DNA from: Minisyncoccota bacterium
GTDB lineage: Bacteria; Patescibacteriota; Minisyncoccia; Phycocordibacterales; CSBR16-193
DNA length: 64,000 bases
Assembly: GCA_040905715.1 (NCBI GenBank)
Contig: JBBDRA010000002.1
Span: 101,968-165,967, forward strand
Reading direction: 5' to 3'
This document shows, piece by piece, positions 2,964-43,286 of this stretch; positions within the stretch are counted from its first letter, which is position 1, and every line of letters begins with the position of its first letter. Made by a program: the position numbers and the translations under genes. The notes under the pieces are model-generated. The model did not search any database and was not told the origin of the DNA. It worked only from the letters and a program-made list of their open reading frames with translations.

Positions 2964-3875
2964 TTAGTCGTCGTCTCTTGCCCGAATACGTAATGTATCA
3001 GTGACCTGACCTCCTTCACGGTCTGTGATGCGAATATCGACATAATGATTTCCATCGTCATCAACTTCGCCGGTTAGATACAATCCTCCTTCTTCAACCT
3101 CGAACTGTGTTAGGTGGTCAGGAAGGTCAGTGAGTACCTCGTATTCATACGGCCCCCCGGCGCCACCGGTCGCAACGATCGAGAGAGTAATATCTCTGTC
3201 TTCTCTAACTTCCCAGTAGTCAGGCACAAGGCGCAACTCGCCGCCGCAGGCGTAGCTTCCTTCTTGGGTCTCCTCGCCACACTCTACTGGTTCCTCATCC
3301 TCGTCAGTATCGTCACCGCCGGTGTCTGAGCCGTCGTCTCCCGAATCAGTATCACTATCAGAATCATCGTCTCCACCACCGGAGTCAGAGTCATCACTGT
3401 CACCGGAGTCTCCGCCCCCACCTCCTCCATCTCCACCTCCGCCACCCCCACCTGAATAGCCGCTGCTGAATTGGCAGCCGGGGAAACTTGAGCCGACCAT
3501 GGATATATCGTAGTCAGGTGTTTCTGAGCTTTCACAGAACGAGGTAAGGGTTACGCAGCTGGTTCCGGTCGTGACGAAGCCGAGCGCGCAGCTCTGAGGA
3601 AGCGGGTAGTAGTAGGTTTGGCGATACGCGGACATTGCCCAGCTCGTCTTGAATGTGCCGTCAGGGAGGCTGCTTTCAACTGCTTCGTGTTCCAGCATGA
3701 TCGTTCCATCGCAGCAAATATTTGTGATAGTCGTGAATCTTCCTCCGAAATGCTCTGATCCTCCTCCGCCTTGTGCCTCAATGCGCTGTTCAGGTGCTGT
3801 TACAAATACAGCTGTCGTGATCAGTGTTGTAGAGAACACCACTGCAACGATAGAAAAATAAACTGATGATCTCAT
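2964..3875 (-). CDS. Secreted low-complexity protein (poly-Gly and Asp/Ser-rich)
   Basis: N-terminal signal-peptide-like hydrophobic segment, a GGGGGGGDGGGGGGDSGDSDDSD tract and several Cys residues. Confidence 0.5.
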   Translation of the reverse strand: MRSSVYFSIVAVVFSTTLITTAVFVTAPEQRIEAQGGGGSEHFGGRFTTITNICCDGTIMLEHEAVESSLPDGTFKTSWAMSAYRQTYYYPLPQSCALGFVTTGTSCVTLTSFCESSETPDYDISMVGSSFPGCQFSSGYSGGGGGGGDGGGGGGDSGDSDDSDSGGGDDDSDSDTDSGDDGSDTGGDDTDEDEEPVECGEETQEGSYACGGELRLVPDYWEVREDRDITLSIVATGGAGGPYEYEVLTDLPDHLTQFEVEEGGLYLTGEVDDDGNHYVDIRITDREGGQVTDTLRIRARDDD

Positions 3876-3886
3876 GTTTTTAATAA

Positions 3887-4831
3887 CTAATTACCATAGG
3901 ATTTATAAAAGAACGGTATTACATTGCTCTCGCCGCTTTCGTTCACGACCTTGATCTGTACCAAGAGCTCTTCTGGGAATTGTGAACGCACCTGATCAAG
4001 TTTGTCTGAAGGGACAGCGTTCAGTTGTTTTTCAAGCTCTTCCCCGACCGTTGTTTGAAGGGTGAAGGTGAGTGTTTCGCCGTCTTTTGAGGCCACCTCT
4101 TGGTATTGGTCAGGCTGAGTATGGTTGGTCATGACCGTGTTGCGTCTGGTGTTAAAATTGTGTCCGTAGAGCGTTATTTTGTCACCATTCGTGCCCTTAG
4201 CCGGTTCAATGCGAGTGATCTTTGGCTCGTTCCATAAGCCGGTCACTGCGGGCGCATTACTTTCTTTCGGATCTTCCTCAGAAGTGTTTAGTTCAATATT
4301 TGCTTCGCTTGTTTGCTTCGGGGTAGATCCACCACCTACAAATTCGTTGAGCTTTTGACGTGTTGTCTGTCCCACAAAACCGGTTCCATGTGCGAGGTTC
4401 CATGGGTCCAGGACCTCACTGCGATACTTTTCTTGAAAGGCGATCACCGCTTGGGTTGTAAGAGAGCCGAAAAAATCGGTCTCGTTGCCTGGCGAGCCTG
4501 CACCGCTTGCGGCGATCTGGATCCCGGGCACATTGTTTAGTGCTTGCTGGAGTGTGCGTACTTGAGGTTCGCGGTCGCCAGGAGAGAGATTTGAAGTAAT
4601 CTCACCAACGTTATTTGTTGGTTGAGAAATGTTTTGAAATGCGTCTATTTGTTGTTGAAGTAGTTTGATCTGGTTCTGGAGCGATCGGATCAAGTCGGCA
4701 TCTTGTGCATTTACTTGAGATGTGCCAAACAAGACACCGAAAGCGATAAAAGTTGAAAAAATTATCGAATAAGTAAGGATGCCTGACGCCTTTTTCGGCA
4801 CGCTTCTTTGTGAGATCTGTTTCATGTCCAA
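3887..4831 (-). CDS. Secreted protein with a peptidoglycan-binding (PG_binding_1-like) domain
   Basis: Signal/TM at the N-terminus. The LQQALNNVPGIQ...DFFGSLTTQAVIAFQEKY pattern resembles the PG-binding domain. Confidence 0.55.
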   Translation of the reverse strand: MDMKQISQRSVPKKASGILTYSIIFSTFIAFGVLFGTSQVNAQDADLIRSLQNQIKLLQQQIDAFQNISQPTNNVGEITSNLSPGDREPQVRTLQQALNNVPGIQIAASGAGSPGNETDFFGSLTTQAVIAFQEKYRSEVLDPWNLAHGTGFVGQTTRQKLNEFVGGGSTPKQTSEANIELNTSEEDPKESNAPAVTGLWNEPKITRIEPAKGTNGDKITLYGHNFNTRRNTVMTNHTQPDQYQEVASKDGETLTFTLQTTVGEELEKQLNAVPSDKLDQVRSQFPEELLVQIKVVNESGESNVIPFFYKSYGN

Positions 4832-4894
4832 AGTATACCACCAGCGATTGCAATCAACAGGTTAAGGTGGGGAAAAGTCTGATACAATTTAGGA

Positions 4895-5845
4895 ATGTTA
4901 CCGAGCAAGAAATTTACTTTCGTTATTATCGGCGTAGCGGTCAGTGTAGGGGGAGCTGTGTTTCTTTTCATGGGACTTGACGCTGACTCCGTGCCGTATT
5001 CACGTGATGGATTTTCTGCGGTTGCGAGAGGAGGTGCGGATGAGTTAGGTGGCCCGAATATCTCCGGCGACAGGCCGGAAAGCAGTTCAAAAGAGTCTTC
5101 GGAGGAAGATCAAGAAGTGCGTGGTCACTCAACAGCTTCAACAGATAGCGATAAAACAGCAGAATCCACAGAAATTTCTCAGCAGAGTCAAAATATGACG
5201 GATCATTATCCGGAAGATTCCTGGACAAGAGAGTTTCTTGAATACTACAACCAAACAGTTGATGAGCCGCTTATTAATTACAGTGACATAAGCGAGTTTG
5301 ACCGATCAAAGGCGCTTCGCGGCTTTCTTGAGCGGGCGGACGTAAAAAATGAACTTCGTCGATTTCGTGCGTATACTCAAAAAGACCTCACTATAAATGA
5401 TAAGGTTGCAGATGAAGATCGCCGAGACTACGGTAACAAGGTTGCACAAATATTTATCGACAATAGTTCCCCTTACAATGTGACGTCACTGTCGATCTAT
5501 AGAAAAGCTCGAGAGATTGACGATGGAGGGTTGCGTGAAGAACTTATTAATGAATTGCGAAATACACGGCTGCGTTACGAGAGAATGCAAAACGAACTTG
5601 TGCAGTTGAATGTTCCAGAGGACGCGGTTGAGGTGCATCTTGCGCTTTTGAATAGTTCGAGTTTGCTGGAAAAGCGTGTGGCCGGGATGACGCTGTTCTC
5701 ACTTGATCCGATACGAGGAGTAGTGAATGCCGGAGCGTACAAACCGCAAAGCAAGTATTTTGTAGAGAGCTATGAACAACTGGTTGCGTATCTGGAAGAA
5801 CACGAAGTGAGTTTTGCACAGGGGGAGCCTGGTTCCACGTTGTAG
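4895..5845 (+). CDS. Membrane-anchored hypothetical protein
   Basis: Single N-terminal TM helix followed by an acidic Ser-rich linker and a globular domain. Part of the T4SS-like cluster. Confidence 0.45.
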   Translation: MLPSKKFTFVIIGVAVSVGGAVFLFMGLDADSVPYSRDGFSAVARGGADELGGPNISGDRPESSSKESSEEDQEVRGHSTASTDSDKTAESTEISQQSQNMTDHYPEDSWTREFLEYYNQTVDEPLINYSDISEFDRSKALRGFLERADVKNELRRFRAYTQKDLTINDKVADEDRRDYGNKVAQIFIDNSSPYNVTSLSIYRKAREIDDGGLREELINELRNTRLRYERMQNELVQLNVPEDAVEVHLALLNSSSLLEKRVAGMTLFSLDPIRGVVNAGAYKPQSKYFVESYEQLVAYLEEHEVSFAQGEPGSTL

Positions 5846-5893
5846 GTGCGGTATACTGAGTATGATAAACGAAACTTTTAGCACGAGGGCACT

Positions 5894-7096
5894 GTGATGA
5901 CATCATTTACAAAACAGATCTGGGTAGTGGGCGGGCTTGCCATGCTTACTGTAAGCATGGGCGGTGTATTTTTGCCGTCTGCTGTGTACGCTCAAGGTGG
6001 CGGCCAGAGCGTGCCGGTGACTGATGAAGATCATATTGAGGTAAGCGAGGAGGCGAATAATATTCTCAGTAATATTCAAGAAACAAATAAAGAAAATCTT
6101 GAGCAAAATGCAAACGCCGCAGAGACGCTCAAAAAACTCCTTGAAGTGTTTACGGTGGATCACCCGGAAGGAGAAAAAGCATCCAAAGACGCGCTTGCTG
6201 AGAAATCAAAAACAAACATTGATGATTCAGTCGAGGGATACAAAGGATACATGAACAATCAGTACCTTCCGCAGTATGATTGTGAAGAGGGAGAGAATTC
6301 ATTTATTGAGACCGACCCTGATCAATACTACCAGGATGTTTCAAATAGTCAGTTTAATAGATTTCTTGTAGAGGAGTTTAGTTTTGACCGTGATGATCTT
6401 TGTGACAACGGCGACAACTACACTCCTCCCAACAGTAATGACACGCCGAACTATCAAAAAGGGTTAGTTCGCTCACTTCAGACATCTAATGCGCAAGAGC
6501 AGGAATTTGATCTGAATTACAATCTTCACGAAACAACTGACGGAAACGTCGATGAATTTATGAGTGGAGATTTTTCCCACGGCGGCTACGCCGGCCTGTT
6601 TTCGGCTTTGGGAAATTCTGATAATCATATCTACGGAGCATACACAAAGTCTAAAGGAGAATCAGAGCGGCGTGAAAGGGAAGCTCAAGAGATTGAGAGT
6701 CAGAAGCTTGAATGGAGCGGTGGGGCCCATGCTCTTACGAATAGTGATAACCAGATCCTTACGCCAGGAACGCTAAACCGTGACAGGTATGATAGAGCGG
6801 TTAATTTTTGCGAGCGGTCCCTTGTTGGTCTTGATAAACATCAAGAAGTTGCCGAGCAGTTAGATGAGCATTGTCAAGAGATCGAGAACAAGATCATGGA
6901 CGGACTTGCTCTCGATGGGTCGTTGCTTGATTCATTCGATCAGCTTATTAACGGCCTGATCAATCTTGATTACGAGGCAGAGTTTGAAAATATCATTGAT
7001 GATCTTGAGAGCGAAGCAGAAGACTACGTGAGCGACGTAATCGACGACTTCATCGGTGGCTGGCTTGGCGGCGGAGGTGGCGGTGGATTCCTTTAG
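5894..7096 (+). CDS. Secreted acidic hypothetical protein
   Basis: Signal peptide, highly acidic composition, C-terminal GGGGGG tail. Confidence 0.45.
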   Translation: MMTSFTKQIWVVGGLAMLTVSMGGVFLPSAVYAQGGGQSVPVTDEDHIEVSEEANNILSNIQETNKENLEQNANAAETLKKLLEVFTVDHPEGEKASKDALAEKSKTNIDDSVEGYKGYMNNQYLPQYDCEEGENSFIETDPDQYYQDVSNSQFNRFLVEEFSFDRDDLCDNGDNYTPPNSNDTPNYQKGLVRSLQTSNAQEQEFDLNYNLHETTDGNVDEFMSGDFSHGGYAGLFSALGNSDNHIYGAYTKSKGESERREREAQEIESQKLEWSGGAHALTNSDNQILTPGTLNRDRYDRAVNFCERSLVGLDKHQEVAEQLDEHCQEIENKIMDGLALDGSLLDSFDQLINGLINLDYEAEFENIIDDLESEAEDYVSDVIDDFIGGWLGGGGGGGFL

Positions 7097-7105
7097 TAGT
7101 TAGTT

Positions 7106-9214
7106 ATGAATCGAGCAATTTACACAGTACTTTTCTTCCTCATGCTGGCAACAGCAGGATATTTGCGCTTCGGACCATCTTCAGCTGAAGCTAGTTTTCA
7201 CGACACATGGATCGGAGGCGCGGCTCTTATGGCATTCCCTCCTGTGGGTTTGGCTAATGCGGGGTATCAAGCAGGTTCTTGGGCGTTGTCTACTGGAGGC
7301 GAGAAAGTTAAGGAGATGGCCAGCGCTAAATTTATAGATATACTCGTCGACATTGCATCTTTCTTGTTCCAGTTCACTGTGATGTTGTTTCAGATGACCG
7401 TATATTTATTTGAGATCAGTCTTGAATGGTCTGTTGTTAAGTTTACTGAGAATATTGAAAATATCACAATGATCGATACAGGTTGGACGATCATTCGTGA
7501 CATGGTCAATGTTGCTTTTATATTCATCATTCTTTATATAGCGATAAGGATCATTTTACAAATGAACGAAGCAAGCGCTAAACAGATGCTTGTACGAGTT
7601 ATTGTCGCCGCACTGCTTATTAACTTCAGTTTGTTTGCTACCAAGGTGGTTATTGACGCTTCAAATGTTCTCGCTATTGAGTTCTATAACGCCGTTGAGA
7701 CAGTGCAGCCCGCGCCGCAAGATATGCAGGTTGAGATGCCTGATGGAACCGTTTTTGTAAATGAGGATGATCCAATAATCGTAAAAGGGCCGGCATCCGC
7801 GATCATAGGAGGTCTTAATATTCAAACATTATTACATCAGTCAGATGCCGATCCGACACTTAGGTCAGTAGCTGTCGTTTACATAGGAGGAACCGTTCTT
7901 TTATGGGTCCTTATGTTTGTTCTGGGGGCACTGGCAATTATGTTCCTGATACGTTTCGTGGCGTTGATATTTTATATGGTCTTCTCGCCGATCGGTTTTC
8001 TTGGAATTATTTTGCCCCAGCTGTCTTCGGTGGGAGGTAAGTGGTGGAACGGATTGTTGAAGCAAGCGTTCTTTGCTCCAGTTGCGCTTTTCATGCTTTT
8101 TCTGGTCTCCAGTATGGTTAGCAGTCAAAGCTTGGTTGCTGTCACGTCTCTTCCTCAAGGAGCTGCTAATCCGGCACTCGCCTCGGCTATCCAAGGTGAC
8201 ATAAACCATTTTGGGACACTAATGAATTACTTTTTAATAATCGCTCTTACCTGCGGAGCGCTTATTATCTCAAATAGCATTGGCGCACACGGTGCGGCGG
8301 CGGCTGTTTCTGTAGGCAAAAGGACGGCAAACGGAGCTCGTGGCTTTGCTGGGCGTAATACAATAGGTTGGGCTGCGCAAAGAGCTGAAGAGAGGTTTGG
8401 TGATTCGCGTCTCGCCAACACGTTTGTGGGTTCATCGCTCAGAGATATGACCACGCGCAAGCTCGCGAGCGCGAAGTACGGCGGGAAGAAATCAGCGGCA
8501 GACGCGGCAAAAGCAGAACAAAAACGCCGAGGGACGTATGAAAAAGTAGCTAGCGAATCGACGGCCAAAACCCGAGAGCGGATGACCAGATCAGTAGACG
8601 CAGAGGCTGAACGACATCAGGTAAATCTACGGGATGTTGAAGGCAGGATCTCACAGGATCCGCGGGTGCGAGGTCATGATGAGCGATTGCGGGGGCTTAA
8701 TAGTGAAGCGAATCAGCTGCGAGAACAAAAGAAGCAATTTGATGGTAAAGCAAGTACTCCTGATGCTATTCAGGCACGAAAGAATCTAGAGGATAAGGAA
8801 AAAGAACTTCGAAGAGCTGAGCAGGAACGCGAGCAAGCTATTCCGGGAGATCTGAAGCGGGAGCGTGATGCTGTGAAAAGAGAGGCTGAGTATGCAAAAA
8901 AGAACAGCGAGAAAAAACATGAAGAAGCAAATCAAGTTGCAAAGAAAATGGTGGCACGACAGCGCCAGAAAGCGTCCAAGGGTGGGTTAACTACAGCCGG
9001 CACGCAGCAACAAGCAAATATCCTTAAGGAGATGGAAAAAGGAATGGGTGACGACGTTGGGGAGATGAGAAAGAAAGCGAAAGACAAGCAGAAAAAGGAT
9101 CCGGCAGGCAACCTCGCTGATGCGGTTAAAGGCGCTATAGAGGCAGGTGTTATTGATATGCCGGCAAGTGGGCAGGGGCAGGATGATAAAGGTGGAACTT
9201 CTCAACTTAAATAA
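7106..9214 (+). CDS. VirB6/TrbL-like polytopic membrane protein with a C-terminal charged coiled-coil tail
   Basis: Six or more predicted TM helices in the first 430 aa, then a long Lys/Glu/Arg-rich tail. Sits beside VirB4 and VirB3-like genes. Confidence 0.5.
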   Translation: MNRAIYTVLFFLMLATAGYLRFGPSSAEASFHDTWIGGAALMAFPPVGLANAGYQAGSWALSTGGEKVKEMASAKFIDILVDIASFLFQFTVMLFQMTVYLFEISLEWSVVKFTENIENITMIDTGWTIIRDMVNVAFIFIILYIAIRIILQMNEASAKQMLVRVIVAALLINFSLFATKVVIDASNVLAIEFYNAVETVQPAPQDMQVEMPDGTVFVNEDDPIIVKGPASAIIGGLNIQTLLHQSDADPTLRSVAVVYIGGTVLLWVLMFVLGALAIMFLIRFVALIFYMVFSPIGFLGIILPQLSSVGGKWWNGLLKQAFFAPVALFMLFLVSSMVSSQSLVAVTSLPQGAANPALASAIQGDINHFGTLMNYFLIIALTCGALIISNSIGAHGAAAAVSVGKRTANGARGFAGRNTIGWAAQRAEERFGDSRLANTFVGSSLRDMTTRKLASAKYGGKKSAADAAKAEQKRRGTYEKVASESTAKTRERMTRSVDAEAERHQVNLRDVEGRISQDPRVRGHDERLRGLNSEANQLREQKKQFDGKASTPDAIQARKNLEDKEKELRRAEQEREQAIPGDLKRERDAVKREAEYAKKNSEKKHEEANQVAKKMVARQRQKASKGGLTTAGTQQQANILKEMEKGMGDDVGEMRKKAKDKQKKDPAGNLADAVKGAIEAGVIDMPASGQGQDDKGGTSQLK

Positions 9215-9231
9215 TTGGTAGCGATTTACAT

Positions 9232-10263
9232 ATGACACTATCTCACGAGACAATAGGTAACTACATAAACGAACTCGATCCCGAGCTTAGGTCGTATTTA
9301 GTTTCCGACAATATTCAGGATCGGCTTCGCGATATTGCAACAACATACAACCTCTCCGACGAAGAAGTTGTCCGTCTTATTGATGAATCGTATTACGTAT
9401 TGATGGGGCTAAAGCCTGTTTCTGCGTTTGCTGATGAGCTTGCGTCCGGTGTCAAAGTAAATGATGGTGAGCTTGCTGAGATCATTGAATCGGTGGACGA
9501 ACAGATAATTGAACCCGTTAGCGACCTTATACCTTTACATGAGGACGACAAAGAATCGTTTGACGATCAACAATTAGATTCAACTCTAACTGAAGAGAGT
9601 GATGAGCGGGTAGTGACTGTTGCCGACGACCAGATGTCATCTGTCCCTGATTCTCCTCGCAAGGCGGCGCACGAAGCGCTATCATCAAAAGTAAAGAAAC
9701 ATAGCAACGTGCCGGCACCCGATAACCTTCCAGGAACATCTGGAGAACCGATAAGCGCTCCTCAAACACGGCTGCGATCACAAGGCCACTCTTCATCTCC
9801 GGCAAAAAAACCTTCACAAAGTATTTGGGATAAGATCTCTTTTCGTAAGTCGGCAGAGCAACAGGACGGTGTTGACCGGTCACTCAAGAAGGATGTTCCG
9901 CGTTCACCTTATGCAAACATGCCGGAAAGCCAGGAACAAAACGAGGGTCCGCAGGATAGCCAGCAGCTTGATGGGATTGACGTTAAGAGAGAAGTAAAAC
10001 AGCCGTCAGAAAGCGAGAAAGGGCAGAGAGCGTCGACAGCCAATTATTCCATCGGCGGATTTGATTCATTTCGGGAGACTGACCACGATCACCGTAATTT
10101 AAATCGTGACCAGGTGCTGGCCGGTATTGAAGATCCAGATGGAGAAACAAGGCCCAATGATACGGTGTCAGAAGAAGAGTTGCGCCAGGAGTCGCCGGGC
10201 ACGAACGACCCCGACCAAAGGTACGGTGAAGAAGAAGATCCATACAGAGAGCCTGTGGCCTAG
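9232..10263 (+). CDS. Acidic, probably disordered hypothetical protein
   Basis: Long ORF with low hydrophobicity and Asp/Glu/Ser-rich composition, in cluster context. Confidence 0.4.
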   Translation: MTLSHETIGNYINELDPELRSYLVSDNIQDRLRDIATTYNLSDEEVVRLIDESYYVLMGLKPVSAFADELASGVKVNDGELAEIIESVDEQIIEPVSDLIPLHEDDKESFDDQQLDSTLTEESDERVVTVADDQMSSVPDSPRKAAHEALSSKVKKHSNVPAPDNLPGTSGEPISAPQTRLRSQGHSSSPAKKPSQSIWDKISFRKSAEQQDGVDRSLKKDVPRSPYANMPESQEQNEGPQDSQQLDGIDVKREVKQPSESEKGQRASTANYSIGGFDSFRETDHDHRNLNRDQVLAGIEDPDGETRPNDTVSEEELRQESPGTNDPDQRYGEEEDPYREPVA

Positions 10264-10366
10264 CGTATTGATTGTTATAATAATGCTGTGCACATATCGC
10301 ACCCTTCAGCGCAGAATATGGGGGGGTGGTATGATGACAGAGTCACTATGCCTGTAAATTAATTGT

Positions 10367-10804
10367 ATGCGTTTTCACGTCCCTCAATATATTGAAATAG
10401 AAAGCAAGCTGTTTGGACCGTTTACGCTCAAGCAGTTTATCTACCTCGCGGGTGGTATTGGCGCGAGTGTGGGGTTGTGGTTCGTGGTGCCGTATGCGGT
10501 CCTGTCTTTGCCGCTCATAGCTGCAGTTGCTTTGTTTTCATTTGCGCTTGCTTTCTACAAGGTTAATGAAAAGCCGTTCATTGAGGTGATGGAGGCTGCG
10601 TTTTACTATGCCGTAGGCTCAAAGCTCTATATTTGGGATCGGCACCGTAAAACCCCTACGAAGAAAGAAATCGCGGAGGCGGATAAGAAAGAGCAGGAGG
10701 CGAATGTGCCAAAACTGTCGAGCAGTAAGCTTAAAGATCTCACCTGGGACCTGGATACCAAGACCGGAGAGAAAGACGAAGATCTGTCAGATGAAACTAT
10801 TTGA
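10367..10804 (+). CDS. Small two-TM protein, PrgI/VirB3-like
   Basis: 145 aa with two hydrophobic helices, located immediately upstream of VirB4 as in Gram-positive conjugation loci. Confidence 0.45.
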   Translation: MRFHVPQYIEIESKLFGPFTLKQFIYLAGGIGASVGLWFVVPYAVLSLPLIAAVALFSFALAFYKVNEKPFIEVMEAAFYYAVGSKLYIWDRHRKTPTKKEIAEADKKEQEANVPKLSSSKLKDLTWDLDTKTGEKDEDLSDETI

Positions 10805-10891
10805 TCAGTTGCATAACTAACATGTAACGCATACGAACAAGACTGAATTGTTCATCGTATCGATATGATACACTAGAGAAAGCTCATTATT

Positions 10892-11554
10892 ATGGCAAAA
10901 CGAAGCACTCCATCACAAGATTTTATTCCGATCAAAGAGATTCGCGACGACGTTGTGATACTCAAGAACGGATCCCTGCGGGCCATACTTATGACCTCAA
11001 CGGTTAACTTTGGTTTGAAATCAAAAGAAGAGCAGGAGTCTACGCTCTATCAATTCCAGAACTTTTTAAATTCTCTCGATTTTTCTACGCAGATCTGTGT
11101 TCAGTCCCGTCGACTTGATATTCGTCCGTACCTTCAGCTTCTTGCGGAACGTCAAAAAGAACAAGTGAACGAGCTTCTAAAGGTTCAAACAAAAGAATAT
11201 ATAGAATTCGTTAAGACCTTTACCGCCAAAACAAATATAATGGCGAAGCATTTTTACGTTATTGTGCCGTATACGCCAACTACAATATCGACTTCCGGCG
11301 GTGGTATTGCGGATAAATTAAAAGGGTTAGTTGGCATGGGCGGATCTGACGACGAGAAAGAGGAGGCAGCTGAGCAAACATTTGATCAGCAGCGAAGCCA
11401 GCTTGAGGCACGGCTGTCTGTTGTGGAGCAGGGATTGATCCGCTCCGGTGTTCGCAGTGCTCGGCTCGGTACCGATGAGTTGACTGAACTTTTTTACCAG
11501 ACCTTTAACCCGGGCGAGACCGATATTCCGGTCAATAAATCGGATGATGAATAA
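10892..11554 (+). CDS. VirB4 N-terminal domain (Orf16/TcpF-like), a separate ORF from the ATPase body
   Basis: SQDFIPIKEIRDDVVILKNGSLRAILMTSTVNFGLKS...FQNFLNSLDFS matches the conserved N-terminal pattern of Gram-positive VirB4 homologs. Ends 24 nt before the ATPase ORF, which is in a different frame. Confidence 0.45.
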   Translation: MAKRSTPSQDFIPIKEIRDDVVILKNGSLRAILMTSTVNFGLKSKEEQESTLYQFQNFLNSLDFSTQICVQSRRLDIRPYLQLLAERQKEQVNELLKVQTKEYIEFVKTFTAKTNIMAKHFYVIVPYTPTTISTSGGGIADKLKGLVGMGGSDDEKEEAAEQTFDQQRSQLEARLSVVEQGLIRSGVRSARLGTDELTELFYQTFNPGETDIPVNKSDDE

Positions 11555-11577
11555 ATCGCGGTAATTGCACTATATAT

Positions 11578-13416
11578 ATGGGTATCCTTGGATTTGGAAA
11601 ATCAAAAAAAGAAGCATCTGACGACAGTCCGATCCTGCCACATCAATTAATGAACGCGGAGTCTTTGGAGCTCGAGGATATAATTGCCCCGAGTGCGCTT
11701 AAGATCACTCCGAAAGCGCTTCATCTCGGTAATAAGATCGTGCGGACACTGTTTGTGATCTCGTACCCGCGTTATCTTACCGAAAGTTGGTTCTCGCCGG
11801 TTATCAATCTAGATAAAGTTTTTGACGTATCGATCTTTATTCACCCGATCGAGACGAGTCAGATCCTGAAGAAGTTTCAGAAAAAAGTGGCAGAGGTGCA
11901 AAGTCAGATCCATGAGCGGGAAGATAAAGGGCTGGTACGTGATCCGCAACTTGACACTGCCTATCAGGATCTCGAGAATCTGCGTGACAAACTTCAGCAG
12001 GCGCAGGAACGTTTGTTCGATGTTGGGTTGTATCTCAGTATCTATGGAGACGATAAGGACGAACTGGATAAAATAGAATCAGAGATCCATTCGATCCTTG
12101 AGGCAAAACTTATTTACGTAAAACCGGCCCTGTTCCAGCAGGCGGAAGGTTTTCGTAGTGCGATCCCGATATCAACTGACGAGCTCGAAGTTCACTCAAA
12201 GTTGAATTCGACCCCGCTGTCGAGCATCTTTCCGTTTGTTTCGTTTGATCTCACGGCTGATTCAGGGATCTTGTACGGTGTTAACCGTCACAACTCAAGT
12301 CTTGTTCTGTTTGATCGCTACAGTCTTGAGAACTACAACTCAGTTACGCTCGCCAAGTCCGGTTCAGGTAAATCATACGGAACGAAACTCGAGATCCTTC
12401 GGTCACTTATGTTTGACACTGAGGTGATCGTGCTCGACCCGGAGCGCGAATACGAAAATCTCTCGGAAGCTGTTGGTGGTCGGTACTTTAATATCTCACT
12501 TACTTCCCAGCACCATATTAATCCGTTTGACCTGCCGGTGCCGACCGAAGACGAGTCTACCGCAAACATCATTCGCTCGAACATTATCCATCTGGTGGGT
12601 TTGTTCCGTATCATGATGGGTGGTTTGACGCCGGAGGAAGACGCGATTATCGATAAGGCGATCACGGAAACCTATGCTCTTAAGGATATTACCCCGGATG
12701 CTGATCTGACCAAGGTCGAAGCACCTTTGTTGTCGGACTTTGAGATGGTACTTTCGGGTATGGAAGGAGCCGAGTCGCTTTCGCAACGCCTTTCAAAGTA
12801 TACTGAAGGAACATGGGCTGGTTTTCTGAACCAGGCAACCAATGTGGATATCGAGCAGAAGTTCATCGTCTTTTCCCTGCGAGACATGGAGGACGAGTTG
12901 AAGCCGGTGGCGATGTACATCGTTACCCACCATATCTGGAATGCGATCCGTCGTCGCCTTCAGAAGCGATTGTTAGTGATCGACGAGGCGTGGTGGATGA
13001 TGAAATCTGAAGATACCGCTTCGTTCCTGCTTGGACTGGCGAAGCGAGGTCGAAAGTACTACCTTGGTCTGTCGACGATCACTCAAGATGTCGGTGACTT
13101 CCTCAAGTCTCCTTACGGCTTACCGATCATCACGAACTCATCGATGCAGTTTTTGATGAAGCAGTCGCCTTCCGGTGCGGAAAGACTTCAAGAGATCTTC
13201 CATCTTACTGAAGAGGAAAAATATCTCCTTATGGAGTCAGATGTTGGAGAAGGTATCTTCTTTGCCGGTATGAAGCATGTCGCGGTAAAAGTAATAGCCA
13301 GCTATACCGAAGATCAGATCATTACGTCTGACCCTTCTGAGATCATGGCGATCAAGAAGTCCAAAAAAGAATTTAATGAACAGGATAGTGACGAGAAGCA
13401 AGAACCGATCAATTAA
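11578..13416 (+). CDS. virB4: VirB4/TraC/CagE-family type IV secretion ATPase (body)
   Basis: Walker A AKSGSGKS and Walker B LLVIDEAWWMM, 612 aa. With the preceding 220-aa ORF the total reaches about 830 aa, typical for VirB4. Confidence 0.8.
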   Translation: MGILGFGKSKKEASDDSPILPHQLMNAESLELEDIIAPSALKITPKALHLGNKIVRTLFVISYPRYLTESWFSPVINLDKVFDVSIFIHPIETSQILKKFQKKVAEVQSQIHEREDKGLVRDPQLDTAYQDLENLRDKLQQAQERLFDVGLYLSIYGDDKDELDKIESEIHSILEAKLIYVKPALFQQAEGFRSAIPISTDELEVHSKLNSTPLSSIFPFVSFDLTADSGILYGVNRHNSSLVLFDRYSLENYNSVTLAKSGSGKSYGTKLEILRSLMFDTEVIVLDPEREYENLSEAVGGRYFNISLTSQHHINPFDLPVPTEDESTANIIRSNIIHLVGLFRIMMGGLTPEEDAIIDKAITETYALKDITPDADLTKVEAPLLSDFEMVLSGMEGAESLSQRLSKYTEGTWAGFLNQATNVDIEQKFIVFSLRDMEDELKPVAMYIVTHHIWNAIRRRLQKRLLVIDEAWWMMKSEDTASFLLGLAKRGRKYYLGLSTITQDVGDFLKSPYGLPIITNSSMQFLMKQSPSGAERLQEIFHLTEEEKYLLMESDVGEGIFFAGMKHVAVKVIASYTEDQIITSDPSEIMAIKKSKKEFNEQDSDEKQEPIN

Positions 13417-13422
13417 CCTTCC

Positions 13423-14115
13423 ATGCCAGAACCGCGCCCTTATAGCAACGATACGAGAAGAGAGACAGGTCCGGCACCGGTAGCGCCGGGAGGGGTTGGT
13501 CCTAAGATGGGAAATGAAGAGGATTTTGAAAAAGATTTCTCTCAAGAAAAGAAGTCTGCGGTAAAAGAGGGTGAGGGTGGGCAGCAAAAAAGATTACAAC
13601 AGCAAAAAACTGGAAGAGGGTCGCGTAAAGGTCGGGTTGCACAACGTGGTTTAACGCGGGCTCGCGCAAAAACTCGTCAGGCGCTTCGAGCGAGCCGAAG
13701 GCAGGAGCAGTTAGAGCAGAGCGTCTCCCAAACTCCAAAGAAAAAGCTGACAGGGTGGCCGTTCTACGTTGTTCTGTTTCTCGCGATCATTAAAGATATT
13801 GTTGACATTATCGTGACGATATTTGTAATCTCTTCAATTGCGAGTACAGCTGCTGCTGCGTTGCTTACCATTGTTATCGTTCCATACTATCTTTACAGCG
13901 GTGTTTTGCCGAAAACAAAGAAGGTTGTGATGTGGGTTATTACAGCTGTTATTGCGTATGTTCCGTTTCTCGCGGTTCTCCCTACGGCAACAATTAATGT
14001 TGTTTTGACACGGATCATGACGAACAATGAGCTTTTCCAGGCAGTGGCAAGCAAGGTAAGCGTAAAAGGAAACATCCGCCGAACCGCGCGTCGAAAAGCA
14101 CAGTCAGCAATGTAG
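13423..14115 (+). CDS. Membrane protein (basic N-terminal region, three C-terminal TM helices)
   Basis: Composition and hydropathy from the translation. Confidence 0.4.
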   Translation: MPEPRPYSNDTRRETGPAPVAPGGVGPKMGNEEDFEKDFSQEKKSAVKEGEGGQQKRLQQQKTGRGSRKGRVAQRGLTRARAKTRQALRASRRQEQLEQSVSQTPKKKLTGWPFYVVLFLAIIKDIVDIIVTIFVISSIASTAAAALLTIVIVPYYLYSGVLPKTKKVVMWVITAVIAYVPFLAVLPTATINVVLTRIMTNNELFQAVASKVSVKGNIRRTARRKAQSAM

Positions 14116-14167
14116 TGGATAATATGCTCACCCCACTTCTAAATAGACGTGATAGAATAACACTATA

Positions 14168-14899
14168 ATGCAAGCGATGAGCATAAAACATAAAGTATTT
14201 ACAGGTCTTGCGATAGCGCTTTTGCTAATACTTGCCCCAAGCGCTCTAGTTCAAGCGCAAGAAGTCGACGTGGATCTGATCTGGGAGGCAGAGTCGTATA
14301 CGCCGGTTTTGTATGACGGAAAATCACGCTATACACCGGGTGCGTCGGTAACACTGCAGGCAGTGCCGTATCGTGTCGGGACAGGTGAAACTATTGATCC
14401 AGCTGTTACAGAATTTACTTGGAAAGTTAATGGGCGACAGATGCGCCAGGGAGTGGGAGAAGATGCGTTTGTTTTCAATGGGTCTACGCAAAAAGAGCAC
14501 ACGATCTCGGTTACGCTAAGAAACAGTAATAAGATAAGTCAGTCAGTAACACTAAAACCATCAGCTCCGGAAGTTGTTTTGTATCCCGAAAGCCCTCTTT
14601 ACGGTACTCAGTCTGCATTTGCACTTATGGGAACATTTCACATGCGTGATCAAGAAGCAACTATTCGCGCCGTACCGTATTACTTCACGGTTGCGTCCGC
14701 GGTCGATCTAGGGCTCCTCTATCGCTGGAGTGTTAACGGAGAGGATATAGATCAGGATCTCACAGGAGACGATGCTTCCGCGTTAACCATGCGTGCCCCC
14801 GAAGGCAATGGATCGGCGCATCTCGGGTTAGAGGTGGAGAAGCAAAACTCACTGTATCATCTTGTCCGAGATCAGTTGAATGTCAGATACGGGCTATAG
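14168..14899 (+). CDS. Secreted hypothetical protein
   Basis: Signal peptide MQAMSIKHKVFTGLAIALLLILAPSALVQA followed by a beta-rich composition. Confidence 0.45.
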   Translation: MQAMSIKHKVFTGLAIALLLILAPSALVQAQEVDVDLIWEAESYTPVLYDGKSRYTPGASVTLQAVPYRVGTGETIDPAVTEFTWKVNGRQMRQGVGEDAFVFNGSTQKEHTISVTLRNSNKISQSVTLKPSAPEVVLYPESPLYGTQSAFALMGTFHMRDQEATIRAVPYYFTVASAVDLGLLYRWSVNGEDIDQDLTGDDASALTMRAPEGNGSAHLGLEVEKQNSLYHLVRDQLNVRYGL

Positions 14900-15740
14900 C
14901 TCATCGAGAGACATGAATACTTTATTTATTATAATAAAAAAACAGTATCAGATACTCGGGGGAGTGGTTCTTGCTTTTATACTTCCGGTGGTTACGTACG
15001 CTCAAAATGATTACGTGCCGTTGGTGCCACTACCAGGGATCGATGGGTCCGGAGGGATCGGGCTGGCAAATTACTTTCAGCAGATGTTCATTCTACTGCT
15101 TAGTTTAACCACGGTCTTCGCGGTGTTGATGATTGTGATTGGCGGATTGCAATACATGACGGCCGGGGACAATGCGAGCAAAGTATCTGGAGCAAAAGAA
15201 ACCATTCAAAATGCTTTATACGGCCTTTTTCTTGCTATCGGTGCCTGGCTCATTCTTTACACCATTAATCCGACCATCCTCAGCTTAACAATCGGGGGTG
15301 ACGAGATTGAGCATCAATCATCCTATGGGTTTATGCGCAATCGAGTGACAACAGCCACGGTGTCGTCTGATTGGATGGGAAACAATTTTTTTGAATATAT
15401 CGCCGGCGCGAGCGACCCGGAGGATGCCGCAATTCAACAGTGCCTCCAAAAAGCCGCACAAATAAATAATGTAAGGGACGAGTATAATATATATAATATT
15501 CAGTCCGGTATGTGCACCAATCCAGAACAGGTCACTCGATATGATGGAGCTGTTGGGTACATCGCTCGTTTTGATTATGCGCGCGTATTCCCCGATACCC
15601 GTTTCGGGCCTGAGCGGTATTTCTCGGATACCATTGAAGAATGCCGAAATCGGCGGGATACAATAATACAGTCAGCAGCGAACCTGGGCGTACCGGCGAG
15701 CGCTCTAGATGCTTCTAATTGTCAGCCGTACACTCATTAA
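14880..15740 (+). CDS. VirB2/TrbC-like pilin with a C-terminal extension
   Basis: Signal peptide, then two closely spaced hydrophobic helices (FILLLSLTTVFAVLMIVIGGLQY and LYGLFLAIGAWLILYTI) typical of T4SS pilins, then roughly 150 aa of Cys-containing extension. Confidence 0.5.
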   Translation: MSDTGYSSSRDMNTLFIIIKKQYQILGGVVLAFILPVVTYAQNDYVPLVPLPGIDGSGGIGLANYFQQMFILLLSLTTVFAVLMIVIGGLQYMTAGDNASKVSGAKETIQNALYGLFLAIGAWLILYTINPTILSLTIGGDEIEHQSSYGFMRNRVTTATVSSDWMGNNFFEYIAGASDPEDAAIQQCLQKAAQINNVRDEYNIYNIQSGMCTNPEQVTRYDGAVGYIARFDYARVFPDTRFGPERYFSDTIEECRNRRDTIIQSAANLGVPASALDASNCQPYTH

Positions 15741-17080
15741 ATATGAAAAAGATCTTATACATCGCTGTGGTGCTTCTTGTTGTCGTTTGTGCGGCTGCTG
15801 TCGGTCTGTACGCATACCTACCAATCGGTGATGTGAATCCGGAGACCGGCGAGATAGTAAAGATCCAGGATTATTTGCCAATAGCAAATGATAGATCAGG
15901 TGATCCGGATTCTTCAGATGCGGGAGGTGATCAGACTCAGGATGAGGAAGGAGGTTCTCCGGCTGATACAACGTCTTCAGACGAAGAGACCTTACCGGCG
16001 CTGCGCGACCTTTCCGGAGAACCGGTTGCTGGTGCGATCGCGTTTGAGCAGACAGAGCAAGTAGGAACATCAACCCATGTATTTACTGAGATACGCTACA
16101 CGACGGTTGCACAAGGACACGTGCACAGTGCTCGGTCTGATCGGTCGGGTACCGACAGGGTTACCAATGAAACAAATCGAAAAACCGTTAATTCTGTCTG
16201 GACATCACCCGTTACCACAATTTTGCAGACAGTTGATACTAACAGGGATAGTATTACATCGCTGCTGGTTACGATCCACGATGAGCAGGCCACGTCATCC
16301 TCTCTGCGAGAGGTGAGTGGAAATTTTCTTAGCAACACTATTAAGAACATTGTCTCGGCACCAACCGGTGGTCAGATAGTCCTGATTCGATCGCAAGAGA
16401 GTGGTGGGGTTTCTGTTGAAGTAGGTCAGCCGGGAGAACAGATGACGGTGTTGTATACGACACCGCTGAGTGACTGGCAGATCGCATGGCCGGCTTCGGC
16501 ACAGGTTTTATTGACAACCAATCCGGGTGCTGGTGATGACGGATTCCTGTATTCGATCAATACGCAAAACGGCGCACGTACTCGATTGCTCGGTGGTATT
16601 GCCGGTCTGACAGTACGTATGAATTCGGGTGGTTCAAGGTTGCTTTACAATGAGAGTACGAGGAGCGGATTCCAGTTGTACAGCTACACTATTGAAACAG
16701 GTGAGAGCTCTGAACTTGTCACACACCAAACTCTGCCTGAGAAATGCACATGGAGTTCCGAGAGTTCAATAATTGCTTACTGCGGTGTTCCAAGAGAGGT
16801 TCCGTCTGCTCAGTATCCAGATGATTGGTATAAAGGTCGTGTGTCATTTGACGACCACCTAGCCCGGTTTAATGTCGAGACAGGAAAGGTTGAAATTCTT
16901 GAGGATCTCTCAGCAAAAATAGAAGGAGGTGGGGACGTTATCGAGCCCTTCCTCGGGCCCAACGAAGAGTATCTTTTCTTCACCAACAAAAAAGACGGTC
17001 ACTTGTGGAGCTACCGTCTCTCTGATTCAGAAGAGGCGGCTTCGACCAACTCTGGCTCTGAAGAGGGAGCTGATTTCTAG
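15719..17080 (+). CDS. Membrane-anchored beta-propeller-like protein (PD40/TolB-like repeats)
   Basis: N-terminal TM helix, Asp/Ser-rich linker and repeated beta-strand motifs. Confidence 0.45.
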   Translation: MSAVHSLNMKKILYIAVVLLVVVCAAAVGLYAYLPIGDVNPETGEIVKIQDYLPIANDRSGDPDSSDAGGDQTQDEEGGSPADTTSSDEETLPALRDLSGEPVAGAIAFEQTEQVGTSTHVFTEIRYTTVAQGHVHSARSDRSGTDRVTNETNRKTVNSVWTSPVTTILQTVDTNRDSITSLLVTIHDEQATSSSLREVSGNFLSNTIKNIVSAPTGGQIVLIRSQESGGVSVEVGQPGEQMTVLYTTPLSDWQIAWPASAQVLLTTNPGAGDDGFLYSINTQNGARTRLLGGIAGLTVRMNSGGSRLLYNESTRSGFQLYSYTIETGESSELVTHQTLPEKCTWSSESSIIAYCGVPREVPSAQYPDDWYKGRVSFDDHLARFNVETGKVEILEDLSAKIEGGGDVIEPFLGPNEEYLFFTNKKDGHLWSYRLSDSEEAASTNSGSEEGADF

Positions 17081-17090: not shown

Positions 17091-17576
17091 CTAGTTGACT
17101 GAGGGCTCAGGTTCATCAGTATAGGTAATAACGACGTGACGCTTCTCGCCGACTCCTTCAGAGCATGTTTCGATGTCTGAGACATTGCTCAGTACGTCGT
17201 GGACCACGAAACGCTCGAACGAACTCATAGGCTCCATGGCGATGGAGTTTTTTAGTGAGCGAGCACGCTCAGCGCAAGCCGATGCTTTTTGCGTAAGTGC
17301 TTCGCGTGCGTGTTCACGGTGATAGTTTACGTCAATAGAAAAAACGGCCACATCAGGGCCGAGCTGTTTGCGTGCTATTTGGTGGACAAGGGTGTTTATT
17401 GCTTGCAAATGCGTGCCGTCTGAGCCGATCAGTTCCTTGTCGTTTTCTGCGCTGATCATGAATACCGGGCGGGTTTCATGATCGTGCATGGTGATATCGC
17501 TGTATGAGACGCTAAGAGCGCTCAGGAACCCCTCGATGATCCTCTGTATTTGCTGATTGGTGTCATCGGTCGGCAT
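17091..17576 (-). CDS. jag: Jag/KhpB-like RNA-binding protein (KH/R3H)
   Basis: Conserved position downstream of yidC. R3H-like C-terminal region. Confidence 0.6.
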   Translation of the reverse strand: MPTDDTNQQIQRIIEGFLSALSVSYSDITMHDHETRPVFMISAENDKELIGSDGTHLQAINTLVHQIARKQLGPDVAVFSIDVNYHREHAREALTQKASACAERARSLKNSIAMEPMSSFERFVVHDVLSNVSDIETCSEGVGEKRHVVITYTDEPEPSVN

Positions 17577-17587: not shown

Positions 17588-18490
17588 TTATCTATTTCTC
17601 TTTGCGTGCTTTTTCTTTCGTTTGTTTTTCTTTTGCGGTCGGGCTCCCGGGGTTTTTTGCTGCTCAGTACTTTGCGCGTGATTTTGTGCGTTAACCGCGT
17701 GTTCTGGTAGTGGGTCGGTAGTGTCGGGTGCTGACTCCGGGGTTTTTTCGGTGTCTTTCTGGTTTTGCATCTCTCGGCGTACTACGAGCTCCTGTCCAAG
17801 TGTGAAGAGGTTCGAGGTGATCCAGTAAAGCGCGATGGCGCCGGAGATGCTCCAGGCAATGAAAAAGACAATAACCGGGAAAACGTAGCGCATTTGTATG
17901 TTCATGCTGCGCATGAGGTCTTCTTTAAAGTTCGGCTCACTTGAGGTTTTCGGCTTGAGCGGAGGCATCGAGTAGCGGATCTGGAAAAAGCTCGTGATTG
18001 AAGCAAATACTGCCAGTACCCAGCTTTTACCGGCCAATGAGAGGAACGAAAGCCCGAATAATTGCACGGTTACCAACTCCGGTTCTTGAACAAAGGAGTA
18101 AAGAAGCTCTTGGTCGATCTCTGGCAGGCCGGTGCTTAAAAATATATGATACAGTGCAATAATGATCGGGAGCTGGATCAGGATAAGCAGAAAACTGGAG
18201 AACGGATTGATCCCTTTTTCCTTATAAAAGGCCATCATTTCCTGCGCTTGTGCCTGCTTGTCTTCTTTGTGCTTTTCCTTGATCTCTTTGAGCTCGTCTT
18301 CGTGTGAGCGCATCTTCATCTGCGTTTTGACTGCTTTTCGCGATAGCGGGAAAAGCAGGAGACGAACGAGTACCGTGAAGACGATAACCGCAAGTCCGGC
18401 ATCGCTCCATGGCAAGAACCACATTACAAAAACGAGGCCGTTATAAAGCGGCTCGTAGACAACGAAATTAAAAGCGTCAACGATAAACAT
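17588..18490 (-). CDS. yidC: Membrane protein insertase YidC
   Basis: YidC/Oxa1 signature helices (YNGLVFVMWFLP..., LYKEKGINPFSS). Start chosen at the internal Met of ORF 17588-18580. Confidence 0.8.
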   Translation of the reverse strand: MFIVDAFNFVVYEPLYNGLVFVMWFLPWSDAGLAVIVFTVLVRLLLFPLSRKAVKTQMKMRSHEDELKEIKEKHKEDKQAQAQEMMAFYKEKGINPFSSFLLILIQLPIIIALYHIFLSTGLPEIDQELLYSFVQEPELVTVQLFGLSFLSLAGKSWVLAVFASITSFFQIRYSMPPLKPKTSSEPNFKEDLMRSMNIQMRYVFPVIVFFIAWSISGAIALYWITSNLFTLGQELVVRREMQNQKDTEKTPESAPDTTDPLPEHAVNAQNHAQSTEQQKTPGARPQKKNKRKKKHAKRNR

Positions 18491-18622
18491 GCTCTCTACT
18501 CTAGCGCATCCGCAGGCTTTTTTCAATTTATCCGGTACACTCTTTAGGTTTACGTCAAAGGTGTGTCCAGCCACATGCACGCACGCGTGTACAGCAGGAC
18601 TAATCTAAAACGGGTGGAGTGA

Positions 18623-18970
18623 TTACCCGTTATATACTTTTGCTTTTCTTAGTATTTTCTCAAGGTCGGACGCGACCTCCTCCGAGGAGGCGTCGCGAAT
18701 AGATGATTTGGCGTATAAAGCAATTTTCCAGCCGTCCTGGGTGTGCCCCAAAAGGTCGTTGATGGCGTGGTGTACACGTCGTTTAATCCGATGACGTTCA
18801 ACTGCTCCTTTGGTTACTTTTTGAGAGATGATCACGGCAAACCGGGCAGGAGATGATTCAGTAGAAAGAGTGCGTGCAACAAAAAACGATGAGTGAGTTA
18901 CTCTCACTGCATCGTTTGTCTGCATCTCCTTAAGCATCTCGGTAGTGAGTCGTCGGCTACGGGGAAGCAT
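18623..18970 (-). CDS. rnpA: RNase P protein component
   Basis: FAVIISQKVTKGAVERHRIKRRV motif and rpmH-rnpA-yidC synteny. Confidence 0.8.
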   Translation of the reverse strand: MLPRSRRLTTEMLKEMQTNDAVRVTHSSFFVARTLSTESSPARFAVIISQKVTKGAVERHRIKRRVHHAINDLLGHTQDGWKIALYAKSSIRDASSEEVASDLEKILRKAKVYNG

Positions 18971-21930: not shown

Positions 21931-21967
21931 TTTGGGTTGCTAGGGTTTAACGTCTAACGCCTAGACT

Positions 21968-22222: not shown

Positions 22223-22287
22223 TAAGAAATGTGACGCAAACAAAAACACCCCTCCGATTCTCGGTGGGGTGTTTTGCTTTTTGTTTA

Positions 22288-43227: not shown

Positions 43228-43286
43228 GTTTTTCTTGTGCGCATAAGCAGGTTTTGAAACGCACGCACCTGCGTTATAATACCTCT

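Follow-up and report, generated by a model that had tools for sequence, protein, structure and literature searches.

The DNA analysed here, called the window throughout, is a stretch of 64,000 nucleotides from a Minisyncoccota bacterium (assembly GCA_040905715.1, contig JBBDRA010000002.1, positions 101,968 to 165,967 of the forward strand). Near its left end lies a gene cluster resembling a type IV secretion system (T4SS), in which 11 co-directional plus-strand genes form a tight operon (window positions 4895–17080 in the list of open reading frames (ORFs)), with intergenic spacing ranging from a 20-bp overlap to a 103-bp gap. An earlier note, made from the sequence alone, had drawn attention to this cluster, and its ORF coordinates match exactly those obtained on re-reading. 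The cluster is an ordinary Paceibacteria member of the published chromosomal, relaxase-free T4SS of the Patescibacteria (candidate phyla radiation, CPR) and not a new kind of system; the only new material here consists of six conserved, lineage-specific and unannotated protein families encoded within the operon.

Four of the calls score above the curated cut-offs of the Pfam or NCBIfam hidden Markov models (HMMs): VirB4, PrgI, T4SS_pilin and PG_binding_1. The VirB4 gene (11578–13416, plus strand) encodes a 612-residue protein that carries the Walker A motif GSGKS and the Walker B motif VIDEAW and corresponds to the C-terminal three quarters of a VirB4 ATPase. It matches the NCBIfam CD1110 family (368.6 bits against a cut-off of 325, E 6.5e-110) and Pfam P-loop_TraG (3.6e-25), and pairs with residues 208–754 of a full-length Clostridium perfringens plasmid VirB4 at 31% identity. 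Immediately upstream, a plus-strand gene of 220 codons (10892–11554) encodes a TrsD-like protein, a detached VirB4 N-terminal domain that matches positions 100–233 of NCBIfam VirB4_plasma (4.5e-10) and TrsD/TraD (1e-6), is TraC-like in its precomputed Pfam annotation, and pairs with residues 24–128 of the same plasmid protein. Because the two products cover separate parts of full-length VirB4, the alignments indicate that VirB4 is split over two genes. The earlier note was thus correct about the ATPase and incomplete in having overlooked the gene for its N-terminal domain.

Two further core genes named in that note, for a PrgI/VirB3-like protein and a VirB2-like pilin, are likewise supported by profile matches. 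The small PrgI/VirB3-like membrane protein (10367–10804, plus strand) matches Pfam PrgI (2.2e-10, 41.4 bits against a cut-off of 27). The pilin (14880–15740, plus strand) matches PF18895, T4SS_pilin (4.2e-8, 33.6 bits against a cut-off of 26.6), and displays a signal peptide and two hydrophobic helices; its conservation is confined to residues 22–135 and is followed by a variable, Cys-containing C-terminal extension of about 150 residues, and its true start is likely the ATG at 14913.

The VirB6/TrbL-like assignment of the remaining core gene (7106–9214, plus strand) is more indirect. Its product is an extended polytopic membrane protein of 702 residues, with about seven hydrophobic segments within residues 1–400 and then a charged tail of about 270 residues, for which a profile search of the PDB gives only weak matches to coiled-coil proteins, judged to be noise. 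The protein belongs to a very large family (13,920 homologous clusters in a representative library) and matches weakly the CD3337/EF1877 mobilome membrane family of NCBIfam (19.5 bits, 3.4e-4). Pfam TrbL (PF04610) is matched by 6 of 43 syntenic orthologues, and is the sole family to recur among the relatives; it is also matched, at best with an E value of 8e-8, by 16 of 70 homologues that each align to the window protein at E<1e-43. Since TrbL recurs in this way the VirB6/TrbL label is retained, although it holds transitively, through the relatives, and fails when the window protein itself is compared with Pfam.

The position of the operon is strongly conserved. One genome per GTDB species was scanned, which gave 80 related loci, 46 of them with a full 10 kb on each side. 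In these 46 full-length loci, genes counted by tblastn lie at constant offsets and on the expected strands: PrgI, TrsD, VirB4, the Ig-repeat gene and the propeller gene (both described below) in all 46, the VirB6-like gene, yidC and dnaA in 45 each, dnaN in 44, ksgA in 42, the pilin in 41 (67/80 by HMM) and uvrD in 32. The arrangement of ksgA, operon and then yidC-rnpA-dnaA-dnaN thereby recurs in 42–46 of 46 loci from different GTDB species, which bears out the synteny with the dnaA region that the earlier note had proposed to look for. Iterated HMM searches recover the other operon genes in 55–69 of the 80 loci, at fixed offsets and on the same strand, and all 11 operon genes are intact in the window. 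VirB4 shows a median identity of about 75% over the 46 loci, compared with 59% for DnaA and 48% for DnaN. It has more than 8000 homologues at E<1e-20, of which the best 120 are 75–100% identical and, where named, come nearly all from Paceibacterota, Parcubacteria, Zambryskibacteria, Taylorbacteria and similar CPR groups; the closest plasmid relatives, from Firmicutes and Actinobacteria, share 28–34% identity. As a proxy, this distribution points strongly to a place for the window VirB4 in the Patescibacteria clade. The fixed order across species-level loci therefore shows that the operon is a vertically inherited chromosomal apparatus of Paceibacteria and not a mobile element.

Genes specific to conjugation are missing from this apparatus. 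Scans of window ORFs against Pfam and NCBIfam detected no relaxase, no VirD4-type coupling protein (T4CP), no VirB11 and no lytic transglycosylase, as the earlier note had reported for the first three, and none was seen among the remaining window ORFs read by eye. Nor does a relaxase, T4CP or VirB11 lie in the 5.6 kb upstream of the window, as far as the contig end, a flank read on JBBDKD010000014.1 (GCA_040879545.1, a Paceibacterota metagenome-assembled genome); relaxase and T4CP genes together with element boundaries just outside the window, the finding that the note had named as decisive against it, are absent from this reachable flank. Searches by phmmer with plasmid relaxase, MobC, VirD4 and SLT queries returned nothing in the window or in the 80 related loci, and homologues of relaxase, T4CP or SLT hydrolase occur within 10 kb in none of the 80. 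These absences thus cover the window, the 5.6-kb flank and the related loci, and a T4CP could still be encoded elsewhere in the genome. In the nearest plasmid relatives, MobC, relaxase, VirD4 (CD1115), PrgI, VirB4 and SLT hydrolase genes are adjacent to one another. The only VirB1-like candidate in the window is a protein with PG_binding_1 and TIG domains (3887–4831), which has no catalytic domain. The sole T2SSE-family ATPase in the window (28525–30216) carries an MshEN domain and groups with pilM, pilN, pilO and a prepilin, features that identify it from sequence as a type IV pilus ATPase. Signs of a mobile element are equally lacking: there is no integrase beside the cluster among the ORFs scanned against Pfam, no tRNA gene before position 35166, no flanking repeat and no break in composition at the cluster.

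Type IV pilus genes are scattered over the window at 28525–30216 (minus strand), 43254–45450 (plus strand) and 50482–51078 (plus strand), and encode the PilB-type ATPase (T2SSE plus MshEN), PilM, PilN and PilO; a prepilin with an N-methylation motif is also present, and these genes are separate from the T4SS cluster.

The six accessory proteins of the operon comprise one with a membrane anchor, one polytopic membrane protein, two with signal peptides, one membrane-anchored TolB-like propeller and one cytoplasmic protein. These families, among them the propeller, the Ig-repeat protein and the DPYRE protein, are not discussed in the main text of PMC12102498, and when the membrane protein, pilin, PrgI and other operon families were compared with one another by hhalign, no hidden paralogy emerged. 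The first gene of the operon (4895–5845, plus strand, 316 residues) encodes a protein anchored in the membrane at its N terminus, with an acidic linker leading to a conserved C-terminal domain. It matches no Pfam or NCBIfam family, and its orthologues, recovered in 55 loci, share the strand of virB4 and lie at a steady offset of about −7 kb relative to it. Bacterial TSP3 calcium-binding repeats are present in 17 of 45 orthologues and absent from the window copy. A profile search gave no PDB match to the conserved domain; the lone match (7c7r, E 0.0017) covers the TSP3-repeat region.

The second gene (5894–7096, plus strand) encodes an acidic secreted protein of 400 residues, with a signal peptide ending VYA|Q, that matches no Pfam or NCBIfam family and yields nothing in a PDB profile search of its family. 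Its orthologues, which in 55 loci immediately precede the VirB6-like gene, range from 320 to 840 residues and carry exchanged C-terminal domains of discoidin (F5/8 type C), immunoglobulin (Ig)-like, fn3 or InlB-repeat type; the protein is a candidate surface or tip adhesin. The site just upstream of the VirB6-like gene is where VirB5/TrbJ genes lie in diderm systems, a positional lead by analogy only. A single-sequence AlphaFold2 (AF2) model of this protein was discarded (predicted local distance difference test (pLDDT) 36).

The third accessory gene (9232–10263, plus strand) encodes an acidic protein of 343 residues with a conserved N-terminal domain of about 100 residues and a variable low-complexity linker. 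The earlier note had described it as secreted, a description that does not hold: the protein has neither a signal peptide nor a hydrophobic segment and, lacking the latter, is not Sec-secreted. Iterated HMM searches find orthologues in 69 loci, and the family has no Pfam or PDB relative. Its hallmark is a D-P-Y-R-E-(P) motif located 6–8 residues from the C terminus, in which D336, P337, Y338 and E340 are invariant in the alignment; 67 of 71 orthologues have the motif, and every other ORF of the window and of the 80 loci lacks it. The possibility that DPYRE is a secretion signal common to neighbouring genes was rejected, the motif being confined to one family.

Immediately 3′ of virB4 lies a gene for a membrane protein of 230 residues with a hydrophobic C-terminal half (13423–14115, plus strand). 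Residues 105–210 constitute the conserved hydrophobic half, and a basic N-terminal extension is specific to this genome; orthologues (median 147 residues) occupy the same place in 61 loci. The protein matches no Pfam or NCBIfam family and is unrelated by hhalign to the pilin and to PrgI. The next gene (14168–14899, plus strand) encodes a secreted protein with two tandem Ig/PKD-like repeats of about 100 residues each. Its alignment is built on a repeated W..NG..SGxGK unit, present as three repeats in most orthologues; the match to Pfam PKD_3 is weak, a PDB search gives only weak Ig-domain matches, none significant, and a protein search recovers only the protein itself.

The last gene of the operon (15719–17080, plus strand, likely starting at the ATG at 15743) encodes a transmembrane (TM) helix, a disordered acidic linker and a β-propeller. 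No Pfam match is found at E<0.1, PD40 repeats included. An AF2 model calculated from a 99-sequence alignment (pLDDT 89.6, predicted TM-score 0.81) shows an all-β domain after the linker. A Foldseek search with this model retrieves TolB first (4pwz, E 1.7e-8), followed by the propellers of tricorn protease and acylaminoacyl-peptidase, at about 12% identity; in all, 527 propeller-type PDB matches are obtained at E<=1e-3, which confirms the β-propeller proposed in the earlier note. C335 and C347 are invariant. The N-terminal α/β domain of TolB is not present and is replaced by the TM helix and disordered linker; the protein, as modelled, shares the TolB fold and is not a TolB orthologue. A PG_binding_1 domain is inserted in some propeller orthologues (P0184, P0191, P0193, P0205, P0217 and others), which suggests that the modelled propeller may serve as a wall-associated scaffold; in this window PG_binding_1 is found on the separate divergent protein 3887–4831 and not on the propeller.

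That protein and its neighbour are both encoded on the minus strand, divergently from the operon. The first (3887–4831) is a secreted protein combining PG_binding_1 (Pfam 2.1e-7, 31.5 bits against a cut-off of 23) with an IPT/TIG domain (4.7e-4), so that its description as a PG-binding protein in the earlier note stands. By tblastn, 14 of the 46 full-length loci have a minus-strand orthologue, and HMM searches recover one in about 18 loci; the gene is a variable neighbour of the operon. Iterated-HMM counts for this protein were not used as orthology, the HMM having drifted into the propeller family because some propeller orthologues carry PG_binding_1. The second (2964–3875) is an orphan Cys-rich surface protein of 303 residues with a low-complexity Gly/Asp/Ser linker. 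It matches no Pfam or NCBIfam family, has no orthologue among the 80 related loci (tblastn and HMM), and is seen solely on identical NCBI and Logan contigs. Its absence from the related loci speaks against the inclusion of this poly-Gly protein in the cluster by the earlier note; it is probably a variable surface protein and not a machine part, and its membership of the system is doubtful.

The flanking genes are housekeeping genes of the dnaA region. On the left lie uvrD (24–1553) and ksgA (1898–2863), and on the right jag/KhpB (17091–17576), yidC (17588–18580), rnpA (18623–18970), dnaA (19418–20800), dnaN (20827–21930) and a class A penicillin-binding protein (PBP) gene (22288–24510). The start of dnaA lies 2.3 kb past the cluster end, in agreement with the roughly 2 kb given previously. 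A 56-residue MazE/AbrB-like gene (about 1804–1974) is situated between uvrD and ksgA. The upstream flank contains the remainder of uvrD, a LysM-LysM-Peptidase_M23 gene and a Mg-chelatase/ComM-like gene, after which the contig ends. The LysM-LysM-Peptidase_M23 gene (L081, 14556–15623) lies just past uvrD, about 0.7–1.7 kb upstream of window position 1, and its domain set is reported to be attached to VirB1-like proteins in Patescibacteria. The sole clear terminator is a bidirectional hairpin at 2920–2945, between ksgA and 2964–3875; a promoter scan gave 21 sites against 20.8 in shuffled sequences, and hence no excess.

The earlier note had placed the cluster beside oriC. Adjacency to dnaA is confirmed, but an origin at this site is not: GC skew on the plus strand is positive over the whole 64 kb, on both sides of dnaA, and at four-fold degenerate sites amounts to +0.23 on the left of dnaA, for genes of either strand, and +0.07 to +0.27 on the right. 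No cluster of DnaA boxes is found in the rpmH-dnaA (19150–19417) or dnaN-PBP (21931–22287) spacers. The skew-defined origin is outside the window. An origin at dnaA would mean that transcription of the 12-kb T4SS operon runs head-on into the fork.

Several other features were observed in the window. Ribonucleotide reductase genes are located at 47404–48786 and 48806–50494. At its N terminus the small subunit bears an ATP-cone (Pfam 2e-21); in the large subunit next to it, only the all-α and barrel domains are seen. It is uncommon for the regulatory domain to sit on the small chain. A free-standing LAGLIDADG endonuclease ORF (54435–55130) ends 5 bp before tRNA-Leu (55135), and two tandem Cys-rich HNH endonuclease paralogues (57756–58253 and 58257–58763) stop shortly ahead of tRNA-His (58770). 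A phage Mu Gam-like protein (46583–47161, Pfam 5.9e-18) adjoins tRNA-Arg (46195–46267), with no other phage genes recognised nearby. Finally, a run of small genes (59128–61435) begins with a NUDIX hydrolase (59128–59535, Pfam 1e-15) and contains, as read by eye, three more NUDIX-like genes and one deoxyribonucleotidase-like gene, a content that fits a nucleotide-salvage lifestyle.

The cluster agrees closely with what has been described for the Patescibacteria T4SS. Quinonero-Coronel et al. (2025; PMC12102498) found a monophyletic Patescibacteria VirB4 clade nested within mating-pair formation (MPF) class FATA, with TrsD, PrgI/VirB3, VirB6 and VirB2-like pilins (PF18895 included) close to virB4, relaxases in only 103 of 3,035 genomes, T4CP genes seldom near virB4, and, in Paceibacteria and Microgenomatia, virB4 surroundings rich in dnaA, dnaN, rnpA, ksgA and rpmH. 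These authors proposed that the machine has been repurposed, possibly taking up DNA or macromolecules of other kinds from hosts. In Southlakia epibionticum, transposon sequencing by Wang et al. (2023; PMC10633639) showed that T4SS genes are essential for epibiotic growth; that system, too, has no recognisable relaxase or coupling protein (PMC10633639), and its essential genes include pilins (PMC10633639, PMC12857230). A 2026 preprint describes host-penetrating tubular structures, possibly T4SS pili, together with uptake of host RNA in a cultured representative of the Patescibacteria (bioRxiv 10.64898/2026.06.21.733656).

Like these systems (PMC12102498; S. epibionticum SEML1_0006-0019, PMC10633639), the window cluster combines VirB4 with an adjacent TrsD, PrgI/VirB3, VirB6 and a PF18895 pilin, has no relaxase and no T4CP near virB4, and is chromosomal and vertical with dnaA, dnaN, rnpA and ksgA as neighbours; this vicinity, a reported mark of Paceibacteria T4SSs, is thus found here too. 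It differs in having a single pilin gene with a long C-terminal extension, where S. epibionticum has a six-gene pilin array, and in the lack of a peptidase or lysozyme downstream of virB4. Publications already cover the closeness to dnaA, the lack of a relaxase and the hypothesis of import or host interaction (PMC12102498, PMC10633639). The uptake or cell-cell interaction function suggested by the earlier note is the same hypothesis as in the literature (PMC12102498, PMC10633639, bioRxiv 10.64898/2026.06.21.733656), and would apply here by analogy.

Among other known systems, the phylogenetic affinity of the cluster is with conjugative MPF-FATA systems (pCF10 Prg/Pcf, pIP501 Tra, pGO1 Trs and the CD1110-type C. 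perfringens pSXP-169_2) and not with ComB or Ced. Shared features are a CD1110-family VirB4 (31–34% identity), the gene order polytopic membrane protein, PrgI and VirB4, with the last two directly adjacent, the absence of an outer-membrane core and, with pGO1, the TrsD-like domain. Unlike MPF-FATA plasmids and integrative conjugative elements, the window cluster has no MobC or relaxase, VirD4 (CD1115), SLT/CHAP hydrolase or topoisomerase, its VirB4 is split, and it occupies a fixed chromosomal slot; it also has a VirB2-like pilin, which Gram-positive conjugative systems do not.

Taken together, we consider the identity and non-conjugative nature of the cluster practically certain. The chromosomal, T4SS-like and non-conjugative apparatus perceived in the earlier note is supported by the fixed slot, by the 80 loci without relaxase or T4CP, and by the lack of integrase and tRNA genes. 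With slightly less assurance, but still very probably, the operon is the Paceibacteria version of the Patescibacteria T4SS, descended from monoderm MPF-FATA conjugation machinery, fixed between ksgA and yidC-rnpA-dnaA, vertically inherited and serving as a conduit at host contact. In this scheme, VirB4/TrsD, docked on PrgI and VirB6 in a single membrane, would power the building of a wall-crossing VirB2 pilus or tube; a scaffold through the wall would be supplied by the propeller together with the Ig-repeat protein; the secreted protein whose lectin/Ig ends can be swapped (5894–7096) would serve as the adhesin that binds the host; and the apparatus would operate at the host contact site as a macromolecule conduit, not for conjugation. 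Import of host cytoplasmic nucleic acid is the direction of transport that we tentatively prefer, ahead of effector export, DNA-only uptake and adhesion only.

Several points weigh against this host-contact conduit. Patescibacteria commonly encode a T4CP at another place in the genome (PMC12102498). The operon has no component identified as VirB8-like or VirB1-like, and the roles given to the six accessory proteins derive from position, topology and fold alone. The VirB6 assignment is indirect for the window copy (7106–9214), which has no Pfam match, finds no match by tblastn among 72,556 plasmids, obtains a probability of 0.3% in hhalign against the TrbL_2-like protein of the C. perfringens plasmid, and receives no VirB6 support from a PDB profile search. 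Moreover, T4SS experiments come from Patescibacteria other than Paceibacteria, and the transport direction and substrate proposed here are tentative.

An alternative is that the cluster is a T4CP-independent exporter of protein effectors which, as Bordetella Ptl or Brucella VirB do, would inject or release proteins and in this way subdue the host cell. Such T4CP-less protein-secreting T4SSs exist (PMC12102498, PMC12857230), effector export was suggested by Wang et al. (PMC10633639), and Ptl and Brucella VirB resemble the window cluster in having VirB2, VirB3, VirB4 and VirB6 with no coupling protein or relaxase. They are, however, MPF-T systems of diderms and possess a VirB7/9/10 core along with VirB8 and VirB11, and the window cluster shows none of these. 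The DPYRE protein, which is acidic, cytoplasmic and mostly of low complexity, with a C-terminal motif laid out as in T4SS substrates, could be regarded as an effector; yet it is a conserved single-copy member of the operon, better understood as a machine subunit than as cargo, and neighbouring genes include no effector-like family and share no common C-terminal signal. Effector export is accordingly a lesser candidate, rather unlikely but to be taken seriously.

A dedicated DNA-uptake (competence) T4SS like Helicobacter pylori ComB or archaeal Ced, with DNA as a nucleotide source, would also be relaxase-free, use a VirB4-type ATPase and work in the proposed import direction. The absence of both relaxase and T4CP is in keeping with it, as are the lack of nucleotide synthesis in Patescibacteria and the T4SS of class ABY1 adjoining comF, recG and radA (PMC12102498). 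The resemblance does not extend to the proteins themselves: the CedB match (7.9e-10) is weak, at 38 bits against a cut-off of 700, and Pfam scans of the cluster proteins identified no ComB8/9/10 or CedA-like homologue. Transformation of S. epibionticum, furthermore, needs comEC and type IV pili, and comEC, described as dispensable in a 2025 FEMS review (PMC12857230), contrasts in this with the essential T4SS (PMC10633639, PMC12857230); the window holds its own type IV pilus genes. DNA-only uptake therefore appears unlikely.

Less probable again is an organelle for adhesion only, in which a VirB2 pilus and lectin/Ig proteins attach the cell to its host with no passage of substrate. The variable C-terminal extension of the pilin and the discoidin, Ig or fn3 domains in orthologues of 5894–7096 would suit such a function, but Patescibacteria already have type IV pili for adhesion (PMC12857230), genes for such pili are present in the window, and the retention of a VirB6-like channel protein and of an extremely conserved ATPase suggests translocation. 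Lastly, a decayed integrative conjugative element or plasmid remnant, inserted by chance near dnaA and deprived of its relaxase and coupling protein, might be imagined from the missing relaxase and T4CP and from a CD1110 VirB4 family and PrgI typical of Gram-positive conjugative elements, but is effectively refuted by the same slot and gene order in 42–46 of 46 species-level loci, as well as opposed by a VirB4 that is 75% identical among loci, above DnaA and DnaN, by 11 of 11 genes intact and conserved, and by the absence of integrase, flanking tRNA or repeats and composition break, and it has next to no chance of being correct.

It is conceivable, though doubtful, that the six non-VirB families belong to the machine itself as lineage-specific subunits and take over the functions of VirB5, VirB8, VirB1 and T4CP, which are missing. 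The DPYRE protein (9232–10263) could then be a substrate-recruiting or ATPase-docking factor in place of a coupling protein, 5894–7096 could sit at the pilus tip as a VirB5-like adhesin and determine host range, and the propeller and Ig-repeat protein could make up the wall-spanning part.

The Patescibacteria T4SS is near-universal in a radiation to which perhaps a quarter of bacterial diversity belongs. In the only species tested so far it is essential for epibiotic growth, and among the candidate routes by which these reduced cells obtain host material it ranks first. The present analysis provides an 11-gene operon, defined and conserved, together with coordinates and alignments for its six unannotated families and one confident structure; the six families are targets for understanding how a relaxase-free and T4CP-free T4SS works in a monoderm.

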